Source: a virus
Lineage: Duplodnaviria; Caudoviricetes
IMG/VR virus record: IMGVR_UViG_3300008110_000118
Location: 1 to 54,171 of that record
Reading direction: 5' to 3' (one strand)
Length of the DNA: 54,171 nucleotides
Shown here one piece after another: positions 14,237-40,264 of this stretch. The position numbers were made by a program, and so were the translations under genes. Position 1 is the stretch's first letter. Every line of letters starts with the position of its first letter. The notes under the pieces are model-generated. The model saw nothing but the letters and a program-made list of their open reading frames with translations. It was not told the DNA's origin and searched no databases.

Positions 14237-14452
14237 TTATTTAGACTGATTTTTGAATCCGCTGGAAGATTTGTTTTGTTTGGGGTCTTCTACTGTAATA
14301 TAATTTAAATAATTTGTTTTTCTTACATTAGAAAACCAGAAATCTCTAGCATCCTCATAACAGTCAAATTGCTTAGACTTACCATTACAAAGATAAACTT
14401 TGTAAATATGTCTATCGTAGGGATCGTATGAGGTTTGCTTAAAAATTTCCAT
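14237..14452 (-). CDS. hypothetical protein
   Basis: 71 aa, PYDRH.Y motif; TAATG coupling. Confidence 0.7.
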   Translation of the reverse strand: MEIFKQTSYDPYDRHIYKVYLCNGKSKQFDCYEDARDFWFSNVRKTNYLNYITVEDPKQNKSSSGFKNQSK

Positions 14453-15474
14453 TACAGTTTAATCCAACGATTGTTTTCTAAAGTCCAATTGGTAACATCT
14501 GCAATTCGTTCTTTGACAGACTTGGCAGGTTCCCAACCAAGTTCTTTCATTTTACTGCCATCAAGAGCATAACGAAGATCATGACCAGGACGAGAAGAGT
14601 GAAAATCGATCAATTGATACTTGAGATCCTTTCCTTGTGCTGCTGCAATGATCTGAGCGAGTTCAAGATTATTCAGTTCTTCTGAACCTACAATATTAAA
14701 CTTAGGACACTTTGCATCTCCCCAGGTAGGTTCAAATGTATCCTCATAATTCAAAAGGAACAGAATTGCGCTAGAAACATCTTCAGCGTGAATATAATGC
14801 CGAGATCCAGGAATTGTACAAGTTTTATCGCTATGAATTGTAATCGTTTCACCGTCACGGATCTTGCGAATGCACATAGGAATGTATTTCTCTGGATGCT
14901 GACGCTCACCAAACACATTCATTGTATGAGTAATATAAACGGGAAGACCGTAAGTATTCTCATATGCTACTGCTAGTTCTTCACCACCCGCTTTACTTGC
15001 GCTGTAGGGATTAGTTGAGTTGTAACGATCATTCTCTTTATATTTGATTCCATCTGGAGCAGGACCAAACACTTCATCTGTGCTGAAATAAACGAATCGC
15101 TCAAGATTAGTTTGAGTCCGAGCAAATTCAAGAATATTGCACGTTCCTACTACGTTGTCAAGAACAAACTCCATAGGATACTCGATACTACGATCAACGT
15201 GAGACCCAGCAGCGAGATGGAGAATGTAATCAACTTGACCAATTTCAGAACGTACCAGAGGATTGAGTTCTGCCTTAAGATCATGATGAACGACTTTTAC
15301 ACGTTTCCGAACTTCAGGATCAAATGAAACTATAAGATCGTGAAGACGATTAAGATTTCCGCTATAATCCAAACGATCCAGAGTTGTTATTTGCCAATCT
15401 GTATGATTGAGAAGATACCCAATCATATGATGAGCAATAAAACCTGCGCCGCCTGTAATAAGAACTTTTTTCAT
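14452..15474 (-). CDS. rmlB: dTDP-glucose 4,6-dehydratase-like NAD-dependent epimerase/dehydratase
   Basis: GGAGFIA Rossmann motif, HLAAGSHVDRSI, STDEVFG, YSASK, RPGHDLRY. Confidence 0.9.
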   Translation of the reverse strand: MKKVLITGGAGFIAHHMIGYLLNHTDWQITTLDRLDYSGNLNRLHDLIVSFDPEVRKRVKVVHHDLKAELNPLVRSEIGQVDYILHLAAGSHVDRSIEYPMEFVLDNVVGTCNILEFARTQTNLERFVYFSTDEVFGPAPDGIKYKENDRYNSTNPYSASKAGGEELAVAYENTYGLPVYITHTMNVFGERQHPEKYIPMCIRKIRDGETITIHSDKTCTIPGSRHYIHAEDVSSAILFLLNYEDTFEPTWGDAKCPKFNIVGSEELNNLELAQIIAAAQGKDLKYQLIDFHSSRPGHDLRYALDGSKMKELGWEPAKSVKERIADVTNWTLENNRWIKL

Positions 15475-17413: not shown

Positions 17414-17443
17414 ATTATACCCAGATTCTTATACTCTTGTCAA
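17414..17443 (-). promoter_or_regulatory. consensus sigma70 promoter
   Basis: TTGACA-N18-TATAAT. Confidence 0.7.
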
Positions 17444-17875
17444 ATACATCTCACAAAGAATTGATTCAACAAGATGTGCTTCTATTTCCCACGGTTCATT
17501 TTCATAGTCCAAGTGAGAACAATCAACACCTCTCCAGTATCTTTTTGGACCTTTATCTCTAAGGTCTCCACGAACGTGTTGGAATACATGTTGCAATTCG
17601 TGGAGTAATGTCTTAATATATTCTTCTCTACTCATCCGATTATGAATTTCAATTAAAAAACAACGAGGTCTATGGTCACAATCAGTGACTGAGCACCATC
17701 CATAAACACCCTCTCTTAAAAGTCCTCTATGTTGGACAACAATCTCAATCTTATGTCTTGGGATGAATTTTTTTACAAACCAAGTTACAACATCCTCGCA
17801 AAGAGTCTTGCTGTACTTGTATCCAGATGTCTCAAGAAAAAGCATAATTAAGAACAGCGTTGGTGAGACGAACAC
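17429..17875 (-). CDS. zincin-like metallopeptidase-domain protein
   Basis: HExxH (LLHELQHVFQ) plus downstream PWEIEA; probable start ATG at 17845. Confidence 0.75.
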   Translation of the reverse strand: MFVSPTLFLIMLFLETSGYKYSKTLCEDVVTWFVKKFIPRHKIEIVVQHRGLLREGVYGWCSVTDCDHRPRCFLIEIHNRMSREEYIKTLLHELQHVFQHVRGDLRDKGPKRYWRGVDCSHLDYENEPWEIEAHLVESILCEMYLTRV

Positions 17876-17961
17876 CCCAATTCATTAGAAGCATAAAACT
17901 TCCGATGAAAAGAAGTCTATCAATGTTGGAGTAACTCACGATTTTTCCTCAGGACTCCCTT

Positions 17962-18018
17962 AGTATAGGGCGGTAGGTCCCGATTGGAATCGTTTATGTG
18001 CCAGTTTGAGGATCGTCC
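17962..18018 (-). promoter_or_regulatory. early-type promoter element, copy 8 (marks the late/early boundary)
   Basis: TATACT at 17962-17967; GTGCCAGTT-tgag-GATCGTCC at 17998-18018. Confidence 0.65.
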
Positions 18019-18593
18019 TTTATTCTTCTTCTCATACCCAAATATTCTCGTTCATCATATAAATTATCTTTAAATTTTCCATTTGCATCTACATAATGTA
18101 AAAATGACTGCAAATACCAGTCCTGAGTAAATTTAGGTCTCCAGTGATATAATTCACATCCCTTGTATAAACATAAATCTCCCAAATTTAATTCTACTTT
18201 TATTGCATCACTTTTATCTTCGTTTCGACTAAAATAAATTGGATTTATTTCCTGATCTTTTGGGAATCCTAAAGCAAGAGTTGCTGATATTTCGCAAGAT
18301 GGTCTATCTCGATGAATTATTAGTTCATCGTGCTTTCCATAACATCTAGTATAGGTATAGGTGGGAAGTAAATGTATTCCAGATATTTTACTTAGAGTTT
18401 TTGTAGAACCATCTAGTATAGTATCCATTAAAGGATCACCATAAAATGCAAAACTAAACGGTGCTTGGGCATCCTTTTTTTCTTGACCTTCACCAGAACA
18501 TATTCTAGTATAGAAATAATGTTGTATAAATTTTACAAAATCTAGTTCTAAAAAATTTCTAACAATATAAAAACCCGATTCTTGAAATTCCAT
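17994..18593 (-). CDS. 2OG-Fe(II) oxygenase
   Basis: HxD (IHRDRPSCEISATL), distal H (LYHWR), FLHYV. Confidence 0.88.
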   Translation of the reverse strand: MEFQESGFYIVRNFLELDFVKFIQHYFYTRICSGEGQEKKDAQAPFSFAFYGDPLMDTILDGSTKTLSKISGIHLLPTYTYTRCYGKHDELIIHRDRPSCEISATLALGFPKDQEINPIYFSRNEDKSDAIKVELNLGDLCLYKGCELYHWRPKFTQDWYLQSFLHYVDANGKFKDNLYDEREYLGMRRRIKDDPQTGT

Positions 18594-18598
18594 AGTAA

Positions 18599-19267
18599 TT
18601 ATCTAAATGCGTTTCCATGAATCCATCCAACTAAAGTAAATCTTTCTCCTTTTGTTACTGGAGTTACTTCGTGTAAAGTGTAAGATGGAAAAAATATAGT
18701 ATGCCCTTTTTCTTTTTCTATGATATTATTTTCGTGTGAATTATGAAGAATTAATTCTCCTCCTTCATATTCAGAAGGATCTGATAATTGAACAACAATA
18801 CTAAGTTTTCTATTATGTGGAATTTTCCACTGGAGAGGATCTATATGTGCTTTATAGCACCCATTTTCCGTAGAATTATAATGAGTGAATTGAAGTCTTT
18901 CTATTTTGTTTAGATCAAATTCAAACCATCTTTCGTTGACCATTTTGATATGATCAGTCAATCTTTCATATATCCATGATGTATGTTGATTGATAGGAAT
19001 CCAAGAAACCATAGATCTTCTATGGTCTAAACAATCTTCACCATTTCCGCCAGTGGTTGCTCTTTCCATACACAAAGCTTGCCCTATCATTCTAATATGA
19101 TTTATTTCTAAATCATTAAAGATGTCATTTTTCCAAATCCATCCTGGATAATCTTTAGAATTCAAATACCAATAATCTGAATCTGATTTTTTTAAATCTT
19201 CAATTTCAAGTTTGCTATTTTTTAAGGAATCAAATGATTTATCTGACTCATAATATTTTGAGATCAT
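18599..19267 (-). CDS. 2OG-Fe(II) oxygenase, prolyl-4-hydroxylase/PKHD-type
   Basis: YKAHID, RKLSIVVQLSDPSEYEGGEL, FFPSYTLHEVTPVTKGERFTLVGW. Confidence 0.92.
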   Translation of the reverse strand: MISKYYESDKSFDSLKNSKLEIEDLKKSDSDYWYLNSKDYPGWIWKNDIFNDLEINHIRMIGQALCMERATTGGNGEDCLDHRRSMVSWIPINQHTSWIYERLTDHIKMVNERWFEFDLNKIERLQFTHYNSTENGCYKAHIDPLQWKIPHNRKLSIVVQLSDPSEYEGGELILHNSHENNIIEKEKGHTIFFPSYTLHEVTPVTKGERFTLVGWIHGNAFR

Positions 19268-19270
19268 ATT

Positions 19271-19858
19271 TCAAGAGTTTAACTGAGTTGATGGCCAATT
19301 TAAATTTAAATTAACATTAATAAGTTCTTCAAGAGTATTTGCAAGATTAATTCTCGTGCATAATTCTACTTCAATATCAAAACATTTCTGAATATACCAT
19401 TCCAAATAATCTGCAATTTTAATTAATTCTTCACCAGTAATAGTTCTATAAGTATCAACAAATTTCCAAGCAAAATTTTTATTTGGAAATTGTTTTGCAA
19501 GTTCTCTTTTCAAAAATAGTGCTAATCTAGTTCTTTCATCAGTTTGAATTCTATCATTATCTATAGTAATAAGAGTTACTTCTTTTTCCCATCTCTGAGT
19601 TGCAATTATCTTTTTAATTTTGCTCTTACTAAATTCTAACCATTGAGAATCATAATTATATTCTAGAATTTCTGGATTATTCAGACAAATCCAACCAAGA
19701 GTTTCATGTCCAGCCCAAGAAAGATCGGATAGTTCCTCATCATTATGGGCTGGTAATCCATGAATATTTCTCCAGTTTTCTGGAAGTGACTGGGCGTGAT
19801 CTATTATAGTTTTTGATTGTTTATCAACTAAAACATATAGATCATTCATTATTGCCAT
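19271..19858 (-). CDS. DUF4376-like tail fibre assembly/associated protein
   Basis: IATQRWEKE...IQTDERTR...WK....EL..I....IQKCFDIE C-terminal pattern; N-terminal LPENWRNIHGL. Confidence 0.65.
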   Translation of the reverse strand: MAIMNDLYVLVDKQSKTIIDHAQSLPENWRNIHGLPAHNDEELSDLSWAGHETLGWICLNNPEILEYNYDSQWLEFSKSKIKKIIATQRWEKEVTLITIDNDRIQTDERTRLALFLKRELAKQFPNKNFAWKFVDTYRTITGEELIKIADYLEWYIQKCFDIEVELCTRINLANTLEELINVNLNLNWPSTQLNS

Positions 19859-20315
19859 TTGATTGTTCCTCTGAATTATCGTTAGAAGGATAAGATGCTT
19901 CTTCTGGTTTTGATTCTTTTAACTGTTTTTTCTTATTGGAGCTACTAAGTCTTCTTCTTTTTGGTGCTTCTGCAATTTGCCAGGGAGCAGATCCTTTCCA
20001 AGAAACTGCATGTGGATCTTCAACATCAACATTCCAACCTCTCCAAGAAGCAAAATCAACTCTAGGTCTCATCGCAATTTGAAGACCAGCACCAGCAGCA
20101 AGTTGTTCAATTAATTCAACAACTTCAACAGGTTGCATTTGCGCCCAAACTGTTGCACCATCAGATCTCAAAATTAATTCACACACACCACCAAAAGCAG
20201 TTCCAACAGTTACAGATCTTGCACGATATTTGTTTTGAGCAATAGAAGCATATTCATGCTCCTCATACATTTCTTCAATTTTTTGTCTCAACTCAGACTT
20301 TGGTTTTGAAGGCAT
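19842..20315 (-). CDS. conserved hypothetical protein
   Basis: RARSVTVGTAFGGVCEL...QPVEVVELIEQLAA...RPRVDFASWRGW; ATG at 20315 with AAGGAG RBS. Confidence 0.75.
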   Translation of the reverse strand: MPSKPKSELRQKIEEMYEEHEYASIAQNKYRARSVTVGTAFGGVCELILRSDGATVWAQMQPVEVVELIEQLAAGAGLQIAMRPRVDFASWRGWNVDVEDPHAVSWKGSAPWQIAEAPKRRRLSSSNKKKQLKESKPEEASYPSNDNSEEQSNGNNE

Positions 20316-20346
20316 AAAAATCACTCCTTACAAAAAGTATTTTTAG

Positions 20347-20353
20347 TATTTAT
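20347..20353 (-). promoter_or_regulatory. T4-type late promoter ATAAATA
   Basis: TAATAAATA upstream of 19842-20315; would drive the DUF4376 and two oxygenase genes late. Confidence 0.6.
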
Positions 20354-20359
20354 TACAGT

Positions 20360-22624
20360 TTATTGACGCCAAGAAATTGTAATAAATCCCCCAGGTGGAA
20401 CTTGTATTGGATAATTTGTAAATGGTGTTACAACAACGTTCGTTGCAGTCGATTGATTTGCTTGAAATCCAGGATTTCCTGGATTAGAGGTTCCAGGATT
20501 GCCAGGTGCCCCAAAGTTACCTAATCCACCAAGATTTCCCGGATTTCCTGGAACACCTGGATTTCCAGCAGGACCTGGATTTCCTGGATTTCCTGGGATA
20601 CCTGCTCCTGCTGCAGTAGTTGGATTTCCTGGATTACCTGGAGACCCAGCATTACCATCTGCTCCCACTTGACCCGCACCTCCAGGGTTTCCTGGGTTTC
20701 CTGCGGGACCTACATTTCCCGGATTTCCTGCATTTCCTGGATTTCCTGGATTTGCACCAGATCCGGGATTTCCTGCAGTTCCTGAATTTCCTGGATTTGC
20801 ACCAAATCCATCAGATCCTGGATTTCCACTTCCGCCAGAATTACCAGATCCTCCAGAAGTACCAGCGCCACCACCGCCGCCACCACCACCGAATCTAGGA
20901 GTTCCTCCGGGAGTTGGAACTTGTGCTCCTGACCCACCGGCACCACCACTTCCTCCACCTTGACCGGATCCACCGTTACCTGCAGTTATCCCTGAACCTG
21001 GATTTCCTCCTGGATTTCCTCCTGAACCTGCATTTCCTGGTCCAACTCCTGGGACACCAGCGTTTCCGCCACCACCACCATTTCCACCGCCACCAGCATT
21101 TCCACCAGATCCATTAAAACCGCTATTTCCTGGATTTCCTGAATTTCCCGAACTTCCTCCAGATCCTGCTTGACCTGGATTTCCTGCATTTCCTGCGTTT
21201 CCTCTTACTCCATTATTTCCTGGATTTCCTGTTGTTCCAGCATTACCCCCACCTCCATTCTGTCCAATAGTTCCTCCCGCACCTCCAGCCCCACCAGTTC
21301 CGTTAGTTCCGGCATTTCCTGCATTTCCAGCTCCACCAGCATTTCCTCCAGTGCCAGCATTTCCTGGATTACCCGCATTTCCACCATTTCCACCGATACC
21401 TTGATTTCCTGGATTTCCTGCATTACCACCCAATCCATTTGTTCCTGGATTGCCTGGATTTGCAGTTCCCCCATTACCAAAAGCACCTCCAGGAAAAACC
21501 ACACCGAAAGCAATAGCAGCATCACCAACATTTCCCGAATTACCAAAAATTCCAGTATTTCCCGGATTTGCTCCAGTGCCAATATTTCCAGCAACTCCAG
21601 GATTTCCCAATCCTCCGAGATTTCCTGGATTACCTGGATTTCCCGGATTTCCATTAGGACCTGCGTTTCCTGGATTTCCTGCTATTCCTAGATTTCCTGG
21701 GTTTGCTCCTGTACCCGGATTTCCTGGAGTTCCTTGAGTTCCTGCTGCAGCTCCAGTTCCAGGATTTCCTGGATTCCCCACTTGTCCAGATCCTGCACCA
21801 AATCCATCGGATCCTGCAGACCCCAAAGTTCCTGTTCCCCCATCAGAACCTGGGTTTCCCGATCCACCAGAATTTCCTGCACCACCAGTACCAGCACCAC
21901 TTCCTGAACTTCCAGCACTTCCAGTGCCTCCAGCATTTCCGGCGTTTCCCGATCCAAAAGATCCACCAGTACCACCACTACCACCAGTTCCACCAGTTCC
22001 ATTATTTCCACCAGAACCAGGGCTTCCTGCTCTATCTGGACCTTGCTGAACGGGACGACGAGCACCTCCGCCGCCGCCGCCGCCGCCTCCACCTCCAGAA
22101 GATCCTGGATTTCCTGGATTTCCTGCAGATCCACCGGCACCGCCGGATCCATTAAATCCATCATTTCCAGGATTTCCAGCAGATCCACCGACACCATTAT
22201 TTCCCGGATTTCCTGCGTTTCCTGCATTTCCTCCTGCACCAGCGTTACCTGGATTTCCTATATTTCCACCAACTCCAGGATTTCCCGTAGCACCTTTATT
22301 TCCTGGATTTCCAGCATTACCTCCAGTTCCTACAATTCCAGCATTTCCTGGATTTCCCGCACCTCCTGCGCCGCCCGCATTTCCAGTATTTCCTTGATTT
22401 CCAGCATTTCCACCAGTTCCACCTTGACCTTGATTTCCCCTATTTCCCGCATTTCCTCCAGTTCCCTCAATTCCAGAGTTTCCTGGATTTCCTGGACCAC
22501 CATATCCAACAACTGTTACTTCAGTCGCTCTAACTGGAGCAGTCCAGGTTCCAGGAGTACTAAAAGTTGCCGTAAGAAGTTGTTTGGATGATGAGATTAA
22601 TGACTTTCTGGAAATTATTGACAT
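20360..22624 (-). CDS. Gly-X-Y (Gly-Asn-Pro) collagen-like / polyglycine-II protein built on a glycine-rich beta-domain scaffold
   Basis: About 45 uninterrupted G-X-Y triplets from residue 42, further G-X-Y arms and poly-Gly runs; non-repetitive parts [47 protein letters not shown]. Confidence 0.85.
20470..22500. repeat. degenerate 9-nt coding tandem repeat (plus-strand GGATTTCCT, minus-strand GGA AAT CCA)
   Basis: Dozens of ggatttcct/gcatttcct units encoding GNP/GNA. Confidence 0.8.
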
Positions 22625-22649
22625 CGGTGTATCTAGTGATTTTGATTAA

Positions 22650-23249
22650 TCAATCATAAAAAAACCAACCAGTAGCAATATATTTCGCTTTATCTCCATA
22701 AACAACATTACCTCTATGTGTATGAGTAAATCCAGCTGGCCAGATAATCATACAATTTTCTTTTGGTGGAATACGAAGTCTTTGATATATAAATTCAGTT
22801 TCGCCTGCACATCCTTCGTCAAGAGTATTTAGATACAATGAGAATGCCAAAGCTCTATTTTGCATTCCATCTCCACTTTGTTGCTCACAATGCCAAATAT
22901 GATATCCACCTCCAGGAGAAGTTTTTTGTAATTTTATAGTAGAAGATCTTAAATTTAAATCTCTTAAAATATCATATTCTCTCACATAATCATCAAAACA
23001 TTTTTGCAATCCATCCCAAAACATTCTTACCGTATTTTTCCCCCTATAATCTTGCAAAGAATGATTTGCTAAATTAATAAAATAAAATTCATCTTGTTTT
23101 TCTAATTTTTTTCTCCCTTCTGAATCCTGTCTATTACCAACGTGCCCACCTTCATGGAATAATTCAAATTGTTCTATAAGATGATTACAATATCCTATTG
23201 GATATACATCTTCATACATTCCAATAAAATTTGTGTATTTTGAGTCCAT
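22650..23249 (-). CDS. 2OG-Fe(II) oxygenase (HxE variant)
   Basis: GGGYHIWHCE, YLN...GETEF, WPAGFTHTHRGN, KYIATGW. Confidence 0.9.
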   Translation of the reverse strand: MDSKYTNFIGMYEDVYPIGYCNHLIEQFELFHEGGHVGNRQDSEGRKKLEKQDEFYFINLANHSLQDYRGKNTVRMFWDGLQKCFDDYVREYDILRDLNLRSSTIKLQKTSPGGGYHIWHCEQQSGDGMQNRALAFSLYLNTLDEGCAGETEFIYQRLRIPPKENCMIIWPAGFTHTHRGNVVYGDKAKYIATGWFFYD

Positions 23250-23272
23250 AGTAAAATATAATTAATTTTTAA

Positions 23273-24184
23273 TTAACTGAAATTGAACATTGCAATATTT
23301 CCATACCATGTTGTTCCATTATTGGGAGTTAAGAAAATCCAAACATCGCTTATATTTGCACCAGTAGATCTAGATGGTGGAATGTTATCTGGCCATTTTA
23401 CTGAAGCAGGCCAAGTTACAGAATAACCACCAACAGAATCATTTGTTAAAATTAAAGTAAATGATGCAGAACCAGTTGATACACCCGTCTGAATATTAAA
23501 CGTTGTATTTCCAACTAATGTTGCTGTTATCACATTTCCTTGAGATAATGAAATTGTAGTGATTCCACTTACATTACCTAGGGCATTTAAAGTTTCTGTA
23601 TAATTTCTAATTGTTACATCACTAATTGTTCTACCTGCACTGACTAATGATGTATTTCCTAAACTAATAGATCCAGTTACTAAATTAGCAGAAGTCAAAT
23701 TTCCAGTGATAGAAACTGTTCCACCAATAGATGTATTTCCACTTATGGATGAACTTCCACCTATAGATACATTTCCACCAATAGTAGAAAATCCAGAAAC
23801 ATAAGAGTTTCCAGATACCCAAAGTGCCTGATTTGCTACTGTTGTTCCAACACCAATATTTCTTGTCGTTACAATTCCAGTTGCTACAGATTCCCATTTA
23901 CTGAGTTTTAATTCTGGAATTACTCCAGTAAGACCAGCACCAGATCCATAATAAGTTATAATTCCAGATGTTGCACTTATACTATTAATACCAATTCTGA
24001 CATTACCGATTGTAGTAATGCCAGATATAATTGCAGATCCTTTTACTTGGACTTTTACCTGAGGAGATAATGTACCGATTCCGACGAATTGGGAGTCGGA
24101 TCCAGTTGCAAGCGTAATGTTTTGATTGACATCATCAACTTCTACAAAGTTACTAAATTGGGAAAATTCTCTGTTTATTGCCAT
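23273..24184 (-). CDS. short tail-fibre-like protein
   Basis: VGIGT repeats, beta-helix-like SIGG repeats, C-terminal WP..VKWP...P...DVW domain. Confidence 0.75.
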   Translation of the reverse strand: MAINREFSQFSNFVEVDDVNQNITLATGSDSQFVGIGTLSPQVKVQVKGSAIISGITTIGNVRIGINSISATSGIITYYGSGAGLTGVIPELKLSKWESVATGIVTTRNIGVGTTVANQALWVSGNSYVSGFSTIGGNVSIGGSSSISGNTSIGGTVSITGNLTSANLVTGSISLGNTSLVSAGRTISDVTIRNYTETLNALGNVSGITTISLSQGNVITATLVGNTTFNIQTGVSTGSASFTLILTNDSVGGYSVTWPASVKWPDNIPPSRSTGANISDVWIFLTPNNGTTWYGNIAMFNFS

Positions 24185-24199
24185 CGTTACACTTTCTAA

Positions 24200-24430
24200 T
24201 TATTTATTATAAACACCACGAGGGAATACTTGACCTTGTGAAGGTCTTCTTCCTGTCAGCCATCCTGGTCTCGTTTCTGTCACTTGAGAACCAAGATTTA
24301 TATTACCAACACTTACAGTTCCATTAGAAGGTTCAATTGTATAAGAACTTGTAGATTGAACTTGGAATGCTGCAGTTGATGCAAATCCAACAACTGCTGT
24401 TGTTAAATTGGGAATGCTATAATCTGCCAT
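24200..24430 (-). CDS. small virion-associated hypothetical protein
   Basis: 76 aa ending GWLTGRRPSQGQVFPRGVYNK; TAATG-coupled to 24430-25839. Confidence 0.7.
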   Translation of the reverse strand: MADYSIPNLTTAVVGFASTAAFQVQSTSSYTIEPSNGTVSVGNINLGSQVTETRPGWLTGRRPSQGQVFPRGVYNK

Positions 24431-38666: not shown

Positions 38667-38708
38667 CAAGTCACACTTTTTGGGTCACTGTAACGATTCA
38701 GTATCGTC
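38636..38708 (-). ncRNA. candidate ~70-nt small RNA
   Basis: Own sigma70 promoter; predicted +1 falls at the base of hairpin GACGAU-ACUGA-AUCGUU; single-stranded linker; then terminator. Confidence 0.4.
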
Positions 38709-39326
38709 TTTATTATTATACCACTTTTGTTCTTCCCAAGTCAAGCGTTTTTGTAATTCTTTATCAAATATCATTAGATATCTGTGTTTTCTACTACGAT
38801 CTTTCCATTCACCTTCTTCGCCTTTCATTTTTCCACGAGAGTGTTTAGTTCCGTCTGAATAATAGAAATCTTTTTTTCGATCCGTGAGACCGTAGTACTT
38901 AAAGTTGCAAGCGCGATAAATTGTACCAGAATGGTGATCTGAATCAGCATAAGAAAGGATTGCTTTAACTTCAGTATCTTTCCGAAATTGTCTAATCGCC
39001 TTTGACACAAACCAAGAAGTGATGTTATATTCTCGTGACTGCGTACTAGGTTCGATGCAAAGTCTTGAAAGTTCAAAGAGTCCTTGTTGTTCGTTTCGTT
39101 CAAGTCCAAATGCTCCTTTTGCAATTTCAGGTACAGGTAGTCCAGTAAAAATACAAACTCCTTGAAGACCACCAATATTCAAAGGAGAGAACTCATTTTT
39201 CTTGAAGAGTCCGTAGTTATAACCCGACTTAAAACTCTTTGAAATATCTTTGAGATAATGATAATGCAGTAAAAGTTCTTCTGCTTGCTTTTTGGAAACC
39301 TTATCTAGATAGAAGTCAGACTTCAT
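38685..39326 (-). CDS. Mom-like (GNAT-fold) DNA modification protein
   Basis: HY..., ELSRL, SWFVSKAI, ILSYAD..H.GTIYRACNF.Y.G motifs of the Mu Mom family. Confidence 0.8.
   Translation of the reverse strand: MKSDFYLDKVSKKQAEELLLHYHYLKDISKSFKSGYNYGLFKKNEFSPLNIGGLQGVCIFTGLPVPEIAKGAFGLERNEQQGLFELSRLCIEPSTQSREYNITSWFVSKAIRQFRKDTEVKAILSYADSDHHSGTIYRACNFKYYGLTDRKKDFYYSDGTKHSRGKMKGEEGEWKDRSRKHRYLMIFDKELQKRLTWEEQKWYNNKDDTESLQ
38715..38744 (-). promoter_or_regulatory. sigma70 promoter inside the mom-like 3' end
   Basis: TTGACT-N18-TATAAT, with TG extended -10 (TGG-TATAAT). Confidence 0.65.
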
Positions 39327-39496: not shown

Positions 39497-39661
39497 GTTT
39501 GAAATACTCCAATCTAATCCAGTTGATGAGGGCATTGATTTCCATCCGCTCTTGCTCAGAACATTCGAGAGCATCTTTAACTCTAGCATAACAGGTAAGT
39601 GCATCAATGGTGAGTTGTCTATCTTTTTGAGAAATAAGTGACATTAGAGTTATACGACTCA

Positions 39662-39734
39662 TGGAGAATAGGAGACTCGAACTCCTGACATCCTGCTTGC
39701 AAAGCAGGCGCACTACCAACTGTGCTAATTCCCC
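39662..39734 (-). tRNA. tRNA-Ala(TGC)
   Basis: Cloverleaf GGGGAATTAGCACAGTTGGTAGTGCGCCTGCTTTGCAAGCAGG...GTTCGAGTC...TTCTCCA; G3:U70 identity pair. Confidence 0.95.
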
Positions 39735-39788
39735 AAGGTGAGTCGGATATGATGATCCCGACTCTTATGATAGACATTGCCTATCAAG

Positions 39789-39861
39789 AGCCCCCGACAA
39801 GACTTGAACTTGCGACAACCGCTTTACAAAAGCGGTGCTCTACCATCTGAGCTACAAGGGC
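39789..39861 (-). tRNA. tRNA-Thr(TGT)
   Basis: GCCCTTGTAGCTCAGATGGTAGAGCACCGCTTTTGTAAAGCGG...GTTCAAGTC...GGGGGCT. Confidence 0.95.
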
Positions 39862-39862
39862 A

Positions 39863-40132
39863 TTAATCTACAGGTAACATTTCCGGATTTTCCAGTTCAA
39901 CTTCGAATAACATTGGATGACATAACTCATCAATTAAGTAAAATGAAGACTTATATAAGTCCTCAGGTTCAAAGCGTCTTTCGTTATCTGCTAATTCAAT
40001 TAATTCCAGATCATACATTAAACTATCTGGAACATCATCAAAAGTAAAGGGAACTTGATTTATGAAATACATCAGAACAATTTGAGTTCCGCGATTATAC
40101 CAAACGTATCTGGTATCTATTCTGTATTTCAT
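39863..40132 (-). CDS. conserved hypothetical protein
   Basis: 89 aa, IVLMYFINQVPFTFDD...YLIDELCHP; CTAAATA late-promoter-like site at 40155-40161. Confidence 0.7.
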   Translation of the reverse strand: MKYRIDTRYVWYNRGTQIVLMYFINQVPFTFDDVPDSLMYDLELIELADNERRFEPEDLYKSSFYLIDELCHPMLFEVELENPEMLPVD

Positions 40133-40180
40133 AGAATAGTCCTTTACTTTTGTTTATTTAGAGAGTATTCGGTTCTCTAG

Positions 40181-40264
40181 TAGGGCGAGGGGGACTTGAA
40201 CCCCCACGGGATTACTCCCAACAGATTTTAAGTCTGGTGTGTCTACCACTTCCACCACCGCCCC
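40181..40264 (-). tRNA. tRNA-Leu(TAA)
   Basis: GGGGCGGTGGTGGAAGTGGTAGACACACCAGACTTAAAATCTG, long variable arm, GTTCAAGTC; no encoded CCA. Confidence 0.95.

Follow-up and report, generated by a model that had tools for sequence, protein, structure and literature searches.

Few "auxiliary" genes of aquatic phages are commoner than those for oxygenases of the prolyl-hydroxylase type, which depend on 2-oxoglutarate (2OG) and Fe(II), and cyanophages reportedly carry many 2OG oxygenases without a known substrate. Several described systems close to the one reported here join such enzymes to collagen-like proteins. Mimivirus is described as encoding collagen-like proteins as well as 2OG oxygenases for their modification, including the lysyl hydroxylase/glucosyltransferase L230, together with further glycosyltransferases (PMC8968730, PMC9546862). 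The prolyl 4-hydroxylase (P4H) of Bacillus is described as hydroxylating (Pro-Pro-Gly)n, with a preference for the Y position of the triplet (PMC8968730, citing Schnicker and Dey 2016), and bacterial 2OG dioxygenases have been predicted to modify collagen-like or tail-collar proteins encoded beside them, according to Iyer, Abhiman, de Souza and Aravind 2010 (PMC2938197). Here we describe a cassette of six genes in a 54,171-nucleotide stretch of viral DNA (IMG/VR record IMGVR_UViG_3300008110_000118, the whole stretch being called the window below), in which a fiber-like protein rich in Gly-Asn-Pro triplets is encoded together with three different 2OG oxygenases, at least one of which may hydroxylate it.

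The cassette lies at positions 17994–23249, with all six genes on the minus strand at the end of the tail-fiber block, so that transcription runs from 23249 to 17994. Neighboring genes are 3–35 nt apart or overlap. Both the location and the gene order of the original prediction, which was made from the letters of the window and its open reading frames (ORFs), were upheld. In order of transcription, and starting with the fiber gene that precedes the cassette, the features are:

24201–24207 (-), ATAAATA: late-promoter-like heptamer, 16 nt before the g303 start codon
23273–24184 (-), g303: 303-aa fiber protein directly upstream of ox1; phrog_7760 and phrog_9017, "tail fiber protein"
22650–23249 (-), ox1: 199-aa 2OG/Fe(II) oxygenase of collagen-P4H type (HxE); H120-x-E122, H178, K189; PF13640
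20360–22624 (-), col754: 754-aa Gly-Asn-Pro collagen-like fiber protein; Pfam Collagen PF01391
20347–20353 (-), ATAAATA: heptamer, 22–31 nt before the hyp160 start (GTG 20324 or ATG 20315)
19842–20324 (-), hyp160: 160-aa conserved protein; core of ~115 aa and a variable charged tail
19271–19858 (-), DUF4376 protein: tail-fiber-assembly (Tfa) type; PF14301, phrog_10508
18599–19267 (-), ox2: 222-aa P4H/PKHD-type 2OG/Fe(II) oxygenase; H141-x-D143, H199, R209; PF13640
17994–18593 (-), ox3: 199-aa oxygenase with a predicted PHD-like double-stranded beta-helix (DSBH) fold; IHRDRPSCE; H94-x-D96, H150, R152

Conservation of this arrangement was assessed by an alignment scan of viral contigs that was anchored on hyp160, a gene that is not an oxygenase. 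This confirmed 226 stretches, of which 80 were kept and fell into 53 clusters at 90% hyp160 identity; the loci were annotated with hidden Markov models (HMMs) from alignments built in this analysis. Neighborhood statistics of Gly-X-Y genes and 2OG oxygenases had been proposed as a check when the cassette was first noticed, and they bear out the association: the Gly-X-Y gene was found directly upstream of hyp160 in 52 of the 53 clusters, and the one exception begins 10 nt from a contig end. Where at least 2.5 kb was visible on both sides (30 clusters), ox1 was always present (30/30), at least two oxygenases were present in 27 and all three in 24. Oxygenase ORFs numbered 82 in 150 kb near the cassettes, compared with five in 226 kb farther out. 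The DUF4376 gene follows hyp160 in all of the listed cassettes. These 30 clusters have the following gene orders (GXY, Gly-X-Y gene; DUF, DUF4376 gene):

ox1-GXY-hyp160-DUF-ox2-ox3 (order A): 15/30
ox2-ox1-ox3-GXY-hyp160-DUF (order B): 8/30
ox1-GXY-hyp160-DUF: 4/30
ox2-ox1-GXY-hyp160-DUF: 2/30
ox2-ox1-ox3-GXY-hyp160-DUF-ox2: 1/30

Adjacency of the cassette genes outlasts rearrangement, and of the partners of the Gly-X-Y gene hyp160 is the most specific. This is a genuine, conserved and horizontally mobile cassette, and it very probably works as one functional unit.

The distribution of oxygenase genes in whole records was also considered. Ten records, a set that includes three near-duplicates, were searched over a total of 988 kb with PF13640, a model that does not detect ox3, and 16 of the 18 PF13640 matches were inside the ~16-kb loci around hyp160. 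In a complete 207.7-kb T4-like genome with Gp23, the sole PF13640 matches are two genes of the cassette, and records of 56, 59.7, and 65.7 kb (88–100% complete) have one or two such matches, all in the cassette. Because the matches concentrate in this way, the cassette oxygenases are not a random draw from a large set of oxygenase genes. The search that found Gp23 in the 207.7-kb record gave no match to it in the 56–66-kb records, in which the cassette is followed by endolysin and other structural genes; therefore two kinds of phage carry the cassette.

A second scan, anchored on ox1, returned 79 viral loci, and a tree of 76 rows was made from them. The ox1 of the window falls in a clade of 15 rows (SH-like approximate likelihood ratio test, SH-aLRT, 100), 14 of which have a Gly-X-Y gene within 3 kb, while the fifteenth has only 47 nt of flanking sequence. 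Among the other 61 rows, four have a Gly-X-Y gene. Given this pattern, the link to Gly-X-Y genes belongs to one ox1 subfamily and not to ox1-like enzymes generally. An analogous arrangement is found in the cultured Prochlorococcus phage P-SSM2, where the collagen-like fiber genes PSSM2_027 and PSSM2_028 are followed by two small genes and then by an ox1-type oxygenase annotated as piuC (PSSM2_027 to PSSM2_031). As P-SSM2 has nine PF13640 matches in 252 kb, with a chance adjacency of ~0.1–0.15, this arrangement is weak evidence when taken alone. The collagen-like repeats of P-SSM2 orf028 were noted in 2005, in a paper that mentions neither "oxygenase" nor "2OG" (PMC1079782).

Two unusual loci were seen among the relatives (loci carry the prefix L). 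On a 62.6-kb contig, L015 (8714–16164) has two tandem cassettes between which the oxygenases are divided: the first copy comprises a g303-like gene, GXY, hyp160, DUF, ox2' and ox3', and the second a g303-like gene, ox1, GXY, hyp160, and DUF. The other locus, L009 (4111–9567 of a 46.9-kb IMG/VR contig), encodes a 386-aa Gly-X-Y protein and then, within 6 kb, a tryptophan halogenase (PF04820, E 5e-94) along with three oxygenases, which resembles the dioxygenase/halogenase arrays that Iyer et al. 2010 (PMC2938197) described from cyanophages.

The three oxygenases are different enzymes, as had been claimed: they are mutually unrelated by BLAST, and no relation of ox3 to ox2 was found by hhalign. 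With lengths of 199–222 aa, they consist of the catalytic domain only and have no peptide-substrate-binding domain or protein disulfide isomerase (PDI) partner. Judging by sequence, ox1 and ox2 appear to be of prolyl-hydroxylase type with their catalytic residues intact, and ox3 is assigned to the same class by its modeled fold. The His-x-Asp/Glu...His metal triad and the basic 2OG-binding residue, both putative for ox3, are kept in the cassette copies of ox1 (52/52), ox2 (56/56), and ox3 (50–51/52).

For ox1, the match to PF13640 scored 37 bits (cut-off 27), and residues H120, E122, H178, and K189 were invariant among 44 relatives. When the profile of these relatives was compared with the PDB, it matched the P4H of B. 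anthracis (3itq/5hv0, E 6e-14) and that of PBCV-1 (5c5t, E 2e-9), and further the P4H of Chlamydomonas and the collagen lysyl hydroxylase LH3. This makes ox1 apparently the most collagen-P4H-like of the three. A higher PF13640 score was obtained for ox2 (63.3 bits, cut-off 27), and the NCBIfam models for "Fe2+-dependent dioxygenase" and for the PKHD-type hydroxylase YbiX gave sub-cut-off matches, the best at 76.7 bits against 143. Its residues H141, D143, H199, and R209 are invariant in its alignment, and its profile matched the PKHD hydroxylase 3dkq (E 2.5e-16), PiuC, and, over the full length, the B. anthracis P4H (E 2e-10), along with the Chlamydomonas P4H, P3H1, and P4H-TM. The ox2 of the 56–66-kb phage type (L162, 4667–5755) has an N-terminal extension of ~170 aa, without a family match, which brings it to 362 aa in total.

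No Pfam match was found for ox3, nor any significant match in the PDB by sequence or by profile. Its AlphaFold (AF2) model, with a predicted local distance difference test (pLDDT) score of 89.3, has a double-stranded beta-helix, and Foldseek matched the model to PHD2 (4bqy, E 3e-8, TM-score 0.69), to PPHD of P. putida (4j25/4iw3), and to PiuC (9qn0), with TM-scores of ~0.6–0.7. Since sequence searches failed, it was the predicted fold alone that placed ox3 among the DSBH oxygenases; of the three enzymes, ox3 was the one modeled. Residues H94, D96, H150, and R152 are invariant in its alignment. The label "ferrochelatase" that PHROGs gives to the ox3 family was taken to be a misnomer. One in-frame stop each was seen in the ox2 ortholog of L014 (11006–11671) and in the ox3-like gene of L046 (2733–3278), and these may reflect a pseudogene or an assembly error.

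The proposed substrate, col754, is composed of 38% Gly, 15% Asn, and 9% Pro, and of its 754 residues 21 are charged and 3 are Lys. It contains 198 in-register Gly-X-Y triplets, divided among two long runs (49 and 46 triplets) and 13 shorter ones, and the long runs, with Gly strictly at every third position, span 147 and 138 residues. GNP is the commonest triplet (38 times), as the original prediction had it, followed by GNA (25 times), and the placing of the two residues was likewise confirmed, Pro being found 46 times in Y and 3 times in X, and Asn 91 times in X and 10 times in Y. Gly itself fills 14% of the X and 22% of the Y positions. The same bias holds for the family: over 2950 triplets of 52 cassette proteins, Pro makes up 16.2% of the residues in Y and 2.0% of those in X, the corresponding shares of Asn being 4.9% and 29.6%, and GNP is again the top triplet. 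Pro is more frequent in Y than in X in 49 of the 52 proteins. Collagen P4Hs need as a minimum the context X-Pro-Gly, which a Pro in Y provides together with the Gly of the next triplet. Bacterial collagens are described as having Pro most commonly in X, and Thr as the predominant residue in Y (PMC8968730).

Against the Pfam Collagen model (PF01391), col754 scored 38.3 bits (E 1.1e-9, cut-off 27.2); the NCBIfam Scl models scored far under their cut-offs. The repeats are preceded by a non-repeat N-terminus of ~41 aa and followed by a C-terminal domain of ~40 aa, the last residues of which (720–754) are 56–100% conserved in relatives. A homotrimer prediction for residues 611–754, with three copies folded without an alignment, gave a score of 0.02, which speaks neither for nor against a trimer. 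A 380-kb giant-virus contig with a classical collagen (L006) was set aside, as it matches col754 through the repeats only. Some variation was observed within the repeats: in a relative with 88% identity (L005/L103, 2201–4392) the Gly-X-Y gene is in two overlapping frames of 551 and 190 aa, and the protein of L007 has 761 aa, so the repeat region seems, from these sequences, to differ in length or frame between strains. Joints within the repeat region were also seen in one DNA run, with sides of 20–21 letters that are too weak to trust.

The two middle genes had been proposed as assembly chaperones, a suggestion that family matches support for one of them. The DUF4376 protein matches PF14301 at 34.4 bits (cut-off 25) and phrog_10508, "tail fiber protein," and its short ortholog in L162 matches five PHROG families of tail-fiber assembly or assembly chaperones (phrog_4912, 8746, 4628, 4697, and 188). 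For hyp160, no match was found in Pfam, PHROG or NCBIfam. Its AF2 model has a pLDDT of 61.7 overall and of ~85 at residues 10–80, and showed no fold match (best VIA Z 4.0; no BFVD match at E ≤0.001; no usable ESM Atlas match). With no recognizable fold, "chaperone" is a guess for hyp160.

In the mechanism that we propose, the cassette genes would be expressed late, together with the fiber genes, and at least one oxygenase, with ox1 as the best candidate, would hydroxylate the Y-position Pro (X-Pro-Gly) of the collagen-like chains before or during their trimerization. The modification would stabilize the triple helix or alter its surface, and the DUF4376 protein and hyp160 would aid assembly. 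Hydroxylation itself, the residue modified and the effect on stability are predictions. Hydroxylation of Asn and priming for glycosylation had also been suggested, and neither is supported. None of the three enzymes could be tied to Asn. Asn-Gly deamidates readily, and the bias of Asn toward X has a simpler chemical reading, namely that Asn in Y would create this deamidation-prone pair. As to glycosylation, no glycosyltransferase family was found among the six genes or the scanned flanking genes.

Expression with the late genes had been suggested from late-promoter sites, which were found in part. The T4 late-promoter octamer TATAAATA does not occur in the window (0 found, 5.2 expected). The heptamer ATAAATA is depleted, with 11 found and 22 expected, and 10 of the 11 are on the coding strand:

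ATAAATA sites: 6596, 11758, 20347, 24201, 29882, 38627, 42533, 45940, 46698, 48028 (-); 49889 (+)

Six of these sites are 16–43 nt before the starts of structural genes, g303 and hyp160 among them (16–31 nt), and the heptamer looks like a variant late-promoter core. The gaps before ox1 and the Gly-X-Y gene measure 23–25 nt and have no directly preceding ATAAATA; read from the sequence, this placing fits two putative late units, g303-ox1-col754 and hyp160-DUF-ox2-ox3. One study provided two lake RNA libraries whose contigs lie on ox3, ox2, the DUF4376 gene, hyp160, and col754, and one contig crosses the ox1/col754 junction (22438–22740); g303 and most of ox1 have no RNA coverage, to which no meaning is attached. 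These contigs are not counted as proof of transcription, as DNA carry-over is possible and they give no transcript ends.

Hydroxylation of a collagen-like fiber is the best-supported reading of the cassette, and we regard its chances as evenly poised. That the oxygenases act on a protein of the cassette is probable; that this protein is the Gly-X-Y protein could fall either way. A number of findings weigh against the proposal. Many Gly-X-Y proteins of type-B cassettes have only 20–50 triplets in ~330 aa, with several Cys, and across the family Gly fills 25–27% of the X and Y positions, which blurs the register. The nearest solved relatives of ox2 and ox3 (PiuC, PKHD hydroxylases, PPHD, PHD2) are not collagen enzymes. 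At ≤43% identity, 57 of the 61 rows of ox1 relatives have no Gly-X-Y neighbor; that of S-CAM8 sits in a replication module, and that of S-RSM4 has a structural gene on one side and a "tail assembly chaperone" on the other. All cassettes being homologous, the 53 clusters are not independent events, and only the two gene orders, the two phage types, and P-SSM2 count as independent support. Lastly, the cassette was not found in cultured phages, hyp160 having no tblastn match in 50,697 phage records.

The substrate could be another virion component of the cassette, such as the g303-type fiber or the assembly factors, with the Gly-X-Y protein as a fiber segment that travels along. In all 33 assessable cassettes, the C-terminal domain of g303 (~residues 185–303) recurs at the end of a fiber ORF that precedes the Gly-X-Y gene by no more than 3.5 kb, and in order A this ORF ends directly before ox1. 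The two fiber genes are equally constant, so the neighborhood cannot pick the Gly-X-Y protein over the g303-type fiber, which is a further point against our proposal. The ox1-like gene of S-RSM4 (39% identity), which follows a virion structural gene, stands in a 14.6-kb stretch with no collagen-like gene and only two Gly-rich runs of 6–7 triplets, and in a 25.8-kb stretch of S-SCSM1 oxygenases are interleaved with fiber genes, none of the genes there passing the filter as a Gly-X-Y gene. We nevertheless consider it unlikely that such a component is the target, for ox1 has its closest PDB relatives among P4Hs whose substrates are X-Pro-Gly or Pro-rich repeats, and the Y-position bias of Pro in the Gly-X-Y family would be left unexplained. 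Moreover, the enzymes of order B all abut the Gly-X-Y gene, ~0.7–1.5 kb from the g303-type gene, and the P-SSM2 oxygenase is paired with collagen-like fibers that have no BLAST similarity to g303. A target off the virion (host proteins such as translation factors, nucleic acids or small molecules), with adjacency to fiber genes due to inherited synteny and shared late expression, would agree with the solved relatives of ox2 and ox3, which include PiuC, PKHD hydroxylases, and PPHD, for which there is a structure of the complex with EF-Tu. Secondary metabolism has been proposed as the role of cyanophage dioxygenase arrays (PMC2938197), L009 joins oxygenases with a tryptophan halogenase, and the role of viral P4H was still termed cryptic in 2022 (PMC9301287). 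This appears unlikely to us, however, because neither rearrangement nor presence in two phage types has separated the oxygenases from the Gly-X-Y, hyp160, and DUF4376 genes, because they are the sole PF13640 genes of a complete 208-kb genome and of complete 60–66-kb genomes, inside a fiber module, and because the cassette has no metabolic partner genes.

Whether the Gly-rich protein forms a triple helix at all is a separate, purely structural question, and either answer would agree with any of these targets. Polyglycine-II-type bundles are found in the gp38-type adhesins of T-even phages, and such an architecture, or a largely disordered chain, would suit a protein with only 9% Pro and almost none of it in X, with Gly occupying as much of X and Y as reported above for col754 and its family, with 21 charged residues in 754, and with a Pfam Collagen score of 38 bits, compared with 566 for the true viral collagen of L006. 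Strict Gly runs of 147 and 138 residues are, on the other hand, far beyond the short strands of polyglycine-II bundles, the Pfam Collagen score is above its cut-off, and the gene occupies a fiber-gene position and is followed by a Tfa-type gene. We consider a non-collagen architecture rather unlikely. Returning to hydroxylation of the Gly-Asn-Pro fiber, its widest form would be that tailed phages make hydroxylated collagen in which each hydroxylase sets its own mark (e.g., 4-hydroxyproline, a second proline position, hydroxy-asparagine), that infectivity, through fiber stability or receptor binding, is tied to the oxygen, iron, and 2-oxoglutarate of the cell, and that the cassette, as a self-sufficient unit for building and finishing its fiber, spreads between unrelated phage groups. 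Taken together, these statements are improbable.

The window is a 54-kb piece of an uncultured virus record, with a completeness of ~24% according to CheckV, and nearly all of its genes are on the minus strand. Its helicase has a best identity of 58%, to Synechococcus phages S-SCSM1 and S-SKS1, a tail protein has ~32% identity to its best match, and large fiber and baseplate proteins match PHROG tail families, tail-fiber proteins being encoded upstream of the cassette. Judged by these genes, the phage is a distant relative of T4-like cyanomyoviruses. DNA nearly identical to the window was found in freshwater and lake metagenomes of 11 studies, and for 17900–24300 between 91 and 100% of the sampled words were present in 18 freshwater/lake metagenome runs; this identifies a lake phage of wide occurrence rather than a marine phage, although its genes are cyanomyovirus-like. 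In the 50,697 phage records there was no match to the region by near-identity search, nor to hyp160 or col754 by protein searches, in which the low-complexity filter of BLAST may hide relatives of col754. Among genomes of 185,579 prokaryotic species, one relative only was found, a type-B cassette on an 11.6-kb contig binned to a metagenome-assembled genome (MAG) of Verrucomicrobiales, and this single contig is too little to call a host.

Several other genes were noted in the surroundings of the cassette. Directly after ox3 (17429–17875, minus strand) is a gene for a 148-aa protein with an HExxH-like motif, weak Peptidase_M78/IrrE-like matches, and a strong match to phrog_10499. Its relatives follow the cassette, directly or within ~3 kb, in the divergent type-A loci L014, L015, L016, L023, L025, and L026, and it may be a further member of the cassette, perhaps a protease that processes the fiber. 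A dTDP-glucose 4,6-dehydratase-like gene (14452–15474, minus strand; TIGR01181, E 5e-77, below cut-off) is located 2.5 kb downstream of the cassette and is kept in the close relatives L004 and L007, with no glycosyltransferase seen beside it; no other gene related to sugars was noticed among those scanned. Between the fiber and baseplate blocks are a homolog of Mom-like DNA-modification proteins (phrog_1384, E 8e-36) and, beside it, three tRNA genes (Ala-TGC, Thr-TGT, and Leu-TAA), at 38685–39326 and 39661–40264, all on the minus strand.

The cassette offers phage oxygenases a defined and clonable candidate substrate, with ~50 natural variants to compare, and gives a clear prediction, namely +16 Da on the Y-position Pro of the GNP repeats. 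If the proposal is true, bacterial viruses would have their first hydroxylated collagen, and collagen maturation would extend from animals and giant viruses to phages. Virion quality would then be tied to the oxygen, iron, and carbon-nitrogen state of the host, and compact P4H enzymes with a matched bacterial-type collagen would become available for hydroxylated recombinant collagens.

Among Creative Commons papers in PMC and bioRxiv preprints, we found no report of hydroxylated fiber proteins or of a link to collagen hydroxylases in tailed phages, and no paper on PiuC as a 2-oxoglutarate hydroxylase. When the cassette is set beside known systems, the enzymes are most readily compared with the P4Hs of PBCV-1 (5c5t) and B. 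anthracis (3itq, 5hv0), which are likewise single-domain 2OG/Fe(II) enzymes of ~200–230 aa. No PDB entries match the ox1 profile better, and the ox2 profile matches these P4Hs along their full length. They differ in that ox1 has HxE instead of HxD, in the low identity, and in that here three unrelated enzymes are fixed together with a candidate substrate. Assembly of tail fibers by chaperones is known from the Tfa type of lambda, P2, and Mu and from T4 gp38. As in those systems, the DUF4376 gene comes after a fiber gene and matches PHROG "tail fiber assembly" families, whereas hyp160 is an extra conserved gene between fiber and chaperone. P-SSM2 also has a fiber-gene setting, with a gene for a 174-aa "tail fiber protein" in the DUF4376 position, although it does not match the DUF4376 HMM; it differs further in having a classical Pro-rich collagen (GPT, GPA, GPP), one oxygenase, and no homolog of hyp160.

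Animal collagen maturation, which uses the alpha2-beta2 collagen P4H (C-P4H), prolyl 3-hydroxylase (P3H), and lysyl hydroxylases, shares with the cassette the Pro in Y of X-Pro-Gly, the use of several 2OG oxygenases, and dedicated folding helpers. Unlike C-P4H, the cassette enzymes have neither a peptide-substrate-binding domain nor a PDI subunit, and Asn instead of Pro fills X. As in Mimivirus, a collagen-like protein and 2OG oxygenases are encoded by the same virus; Mimivirus modifies Lys and couples hydroxylation to glycosylation, in contrast to the P4H/PHD-type enzymes, the 3 Lys of col754, the lack of a glycosyltransferase in the cassette, and the prokaryotic host of this phage. With the operons described by Iyer et al. 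2010 the cassette has in common a co-encoded Gly-rich tripeptide-repeat or fiber-like protein as the proposed substrate, the differences being that those operons are bacterial, use the beta-hydroxylase and PhyH families, and include sulfotransferases. Collagen modification encoded by giant viruses and predicted dioxygenase-collagen operons of bacteria are thus already known, and the phage cassette is a variant of these.

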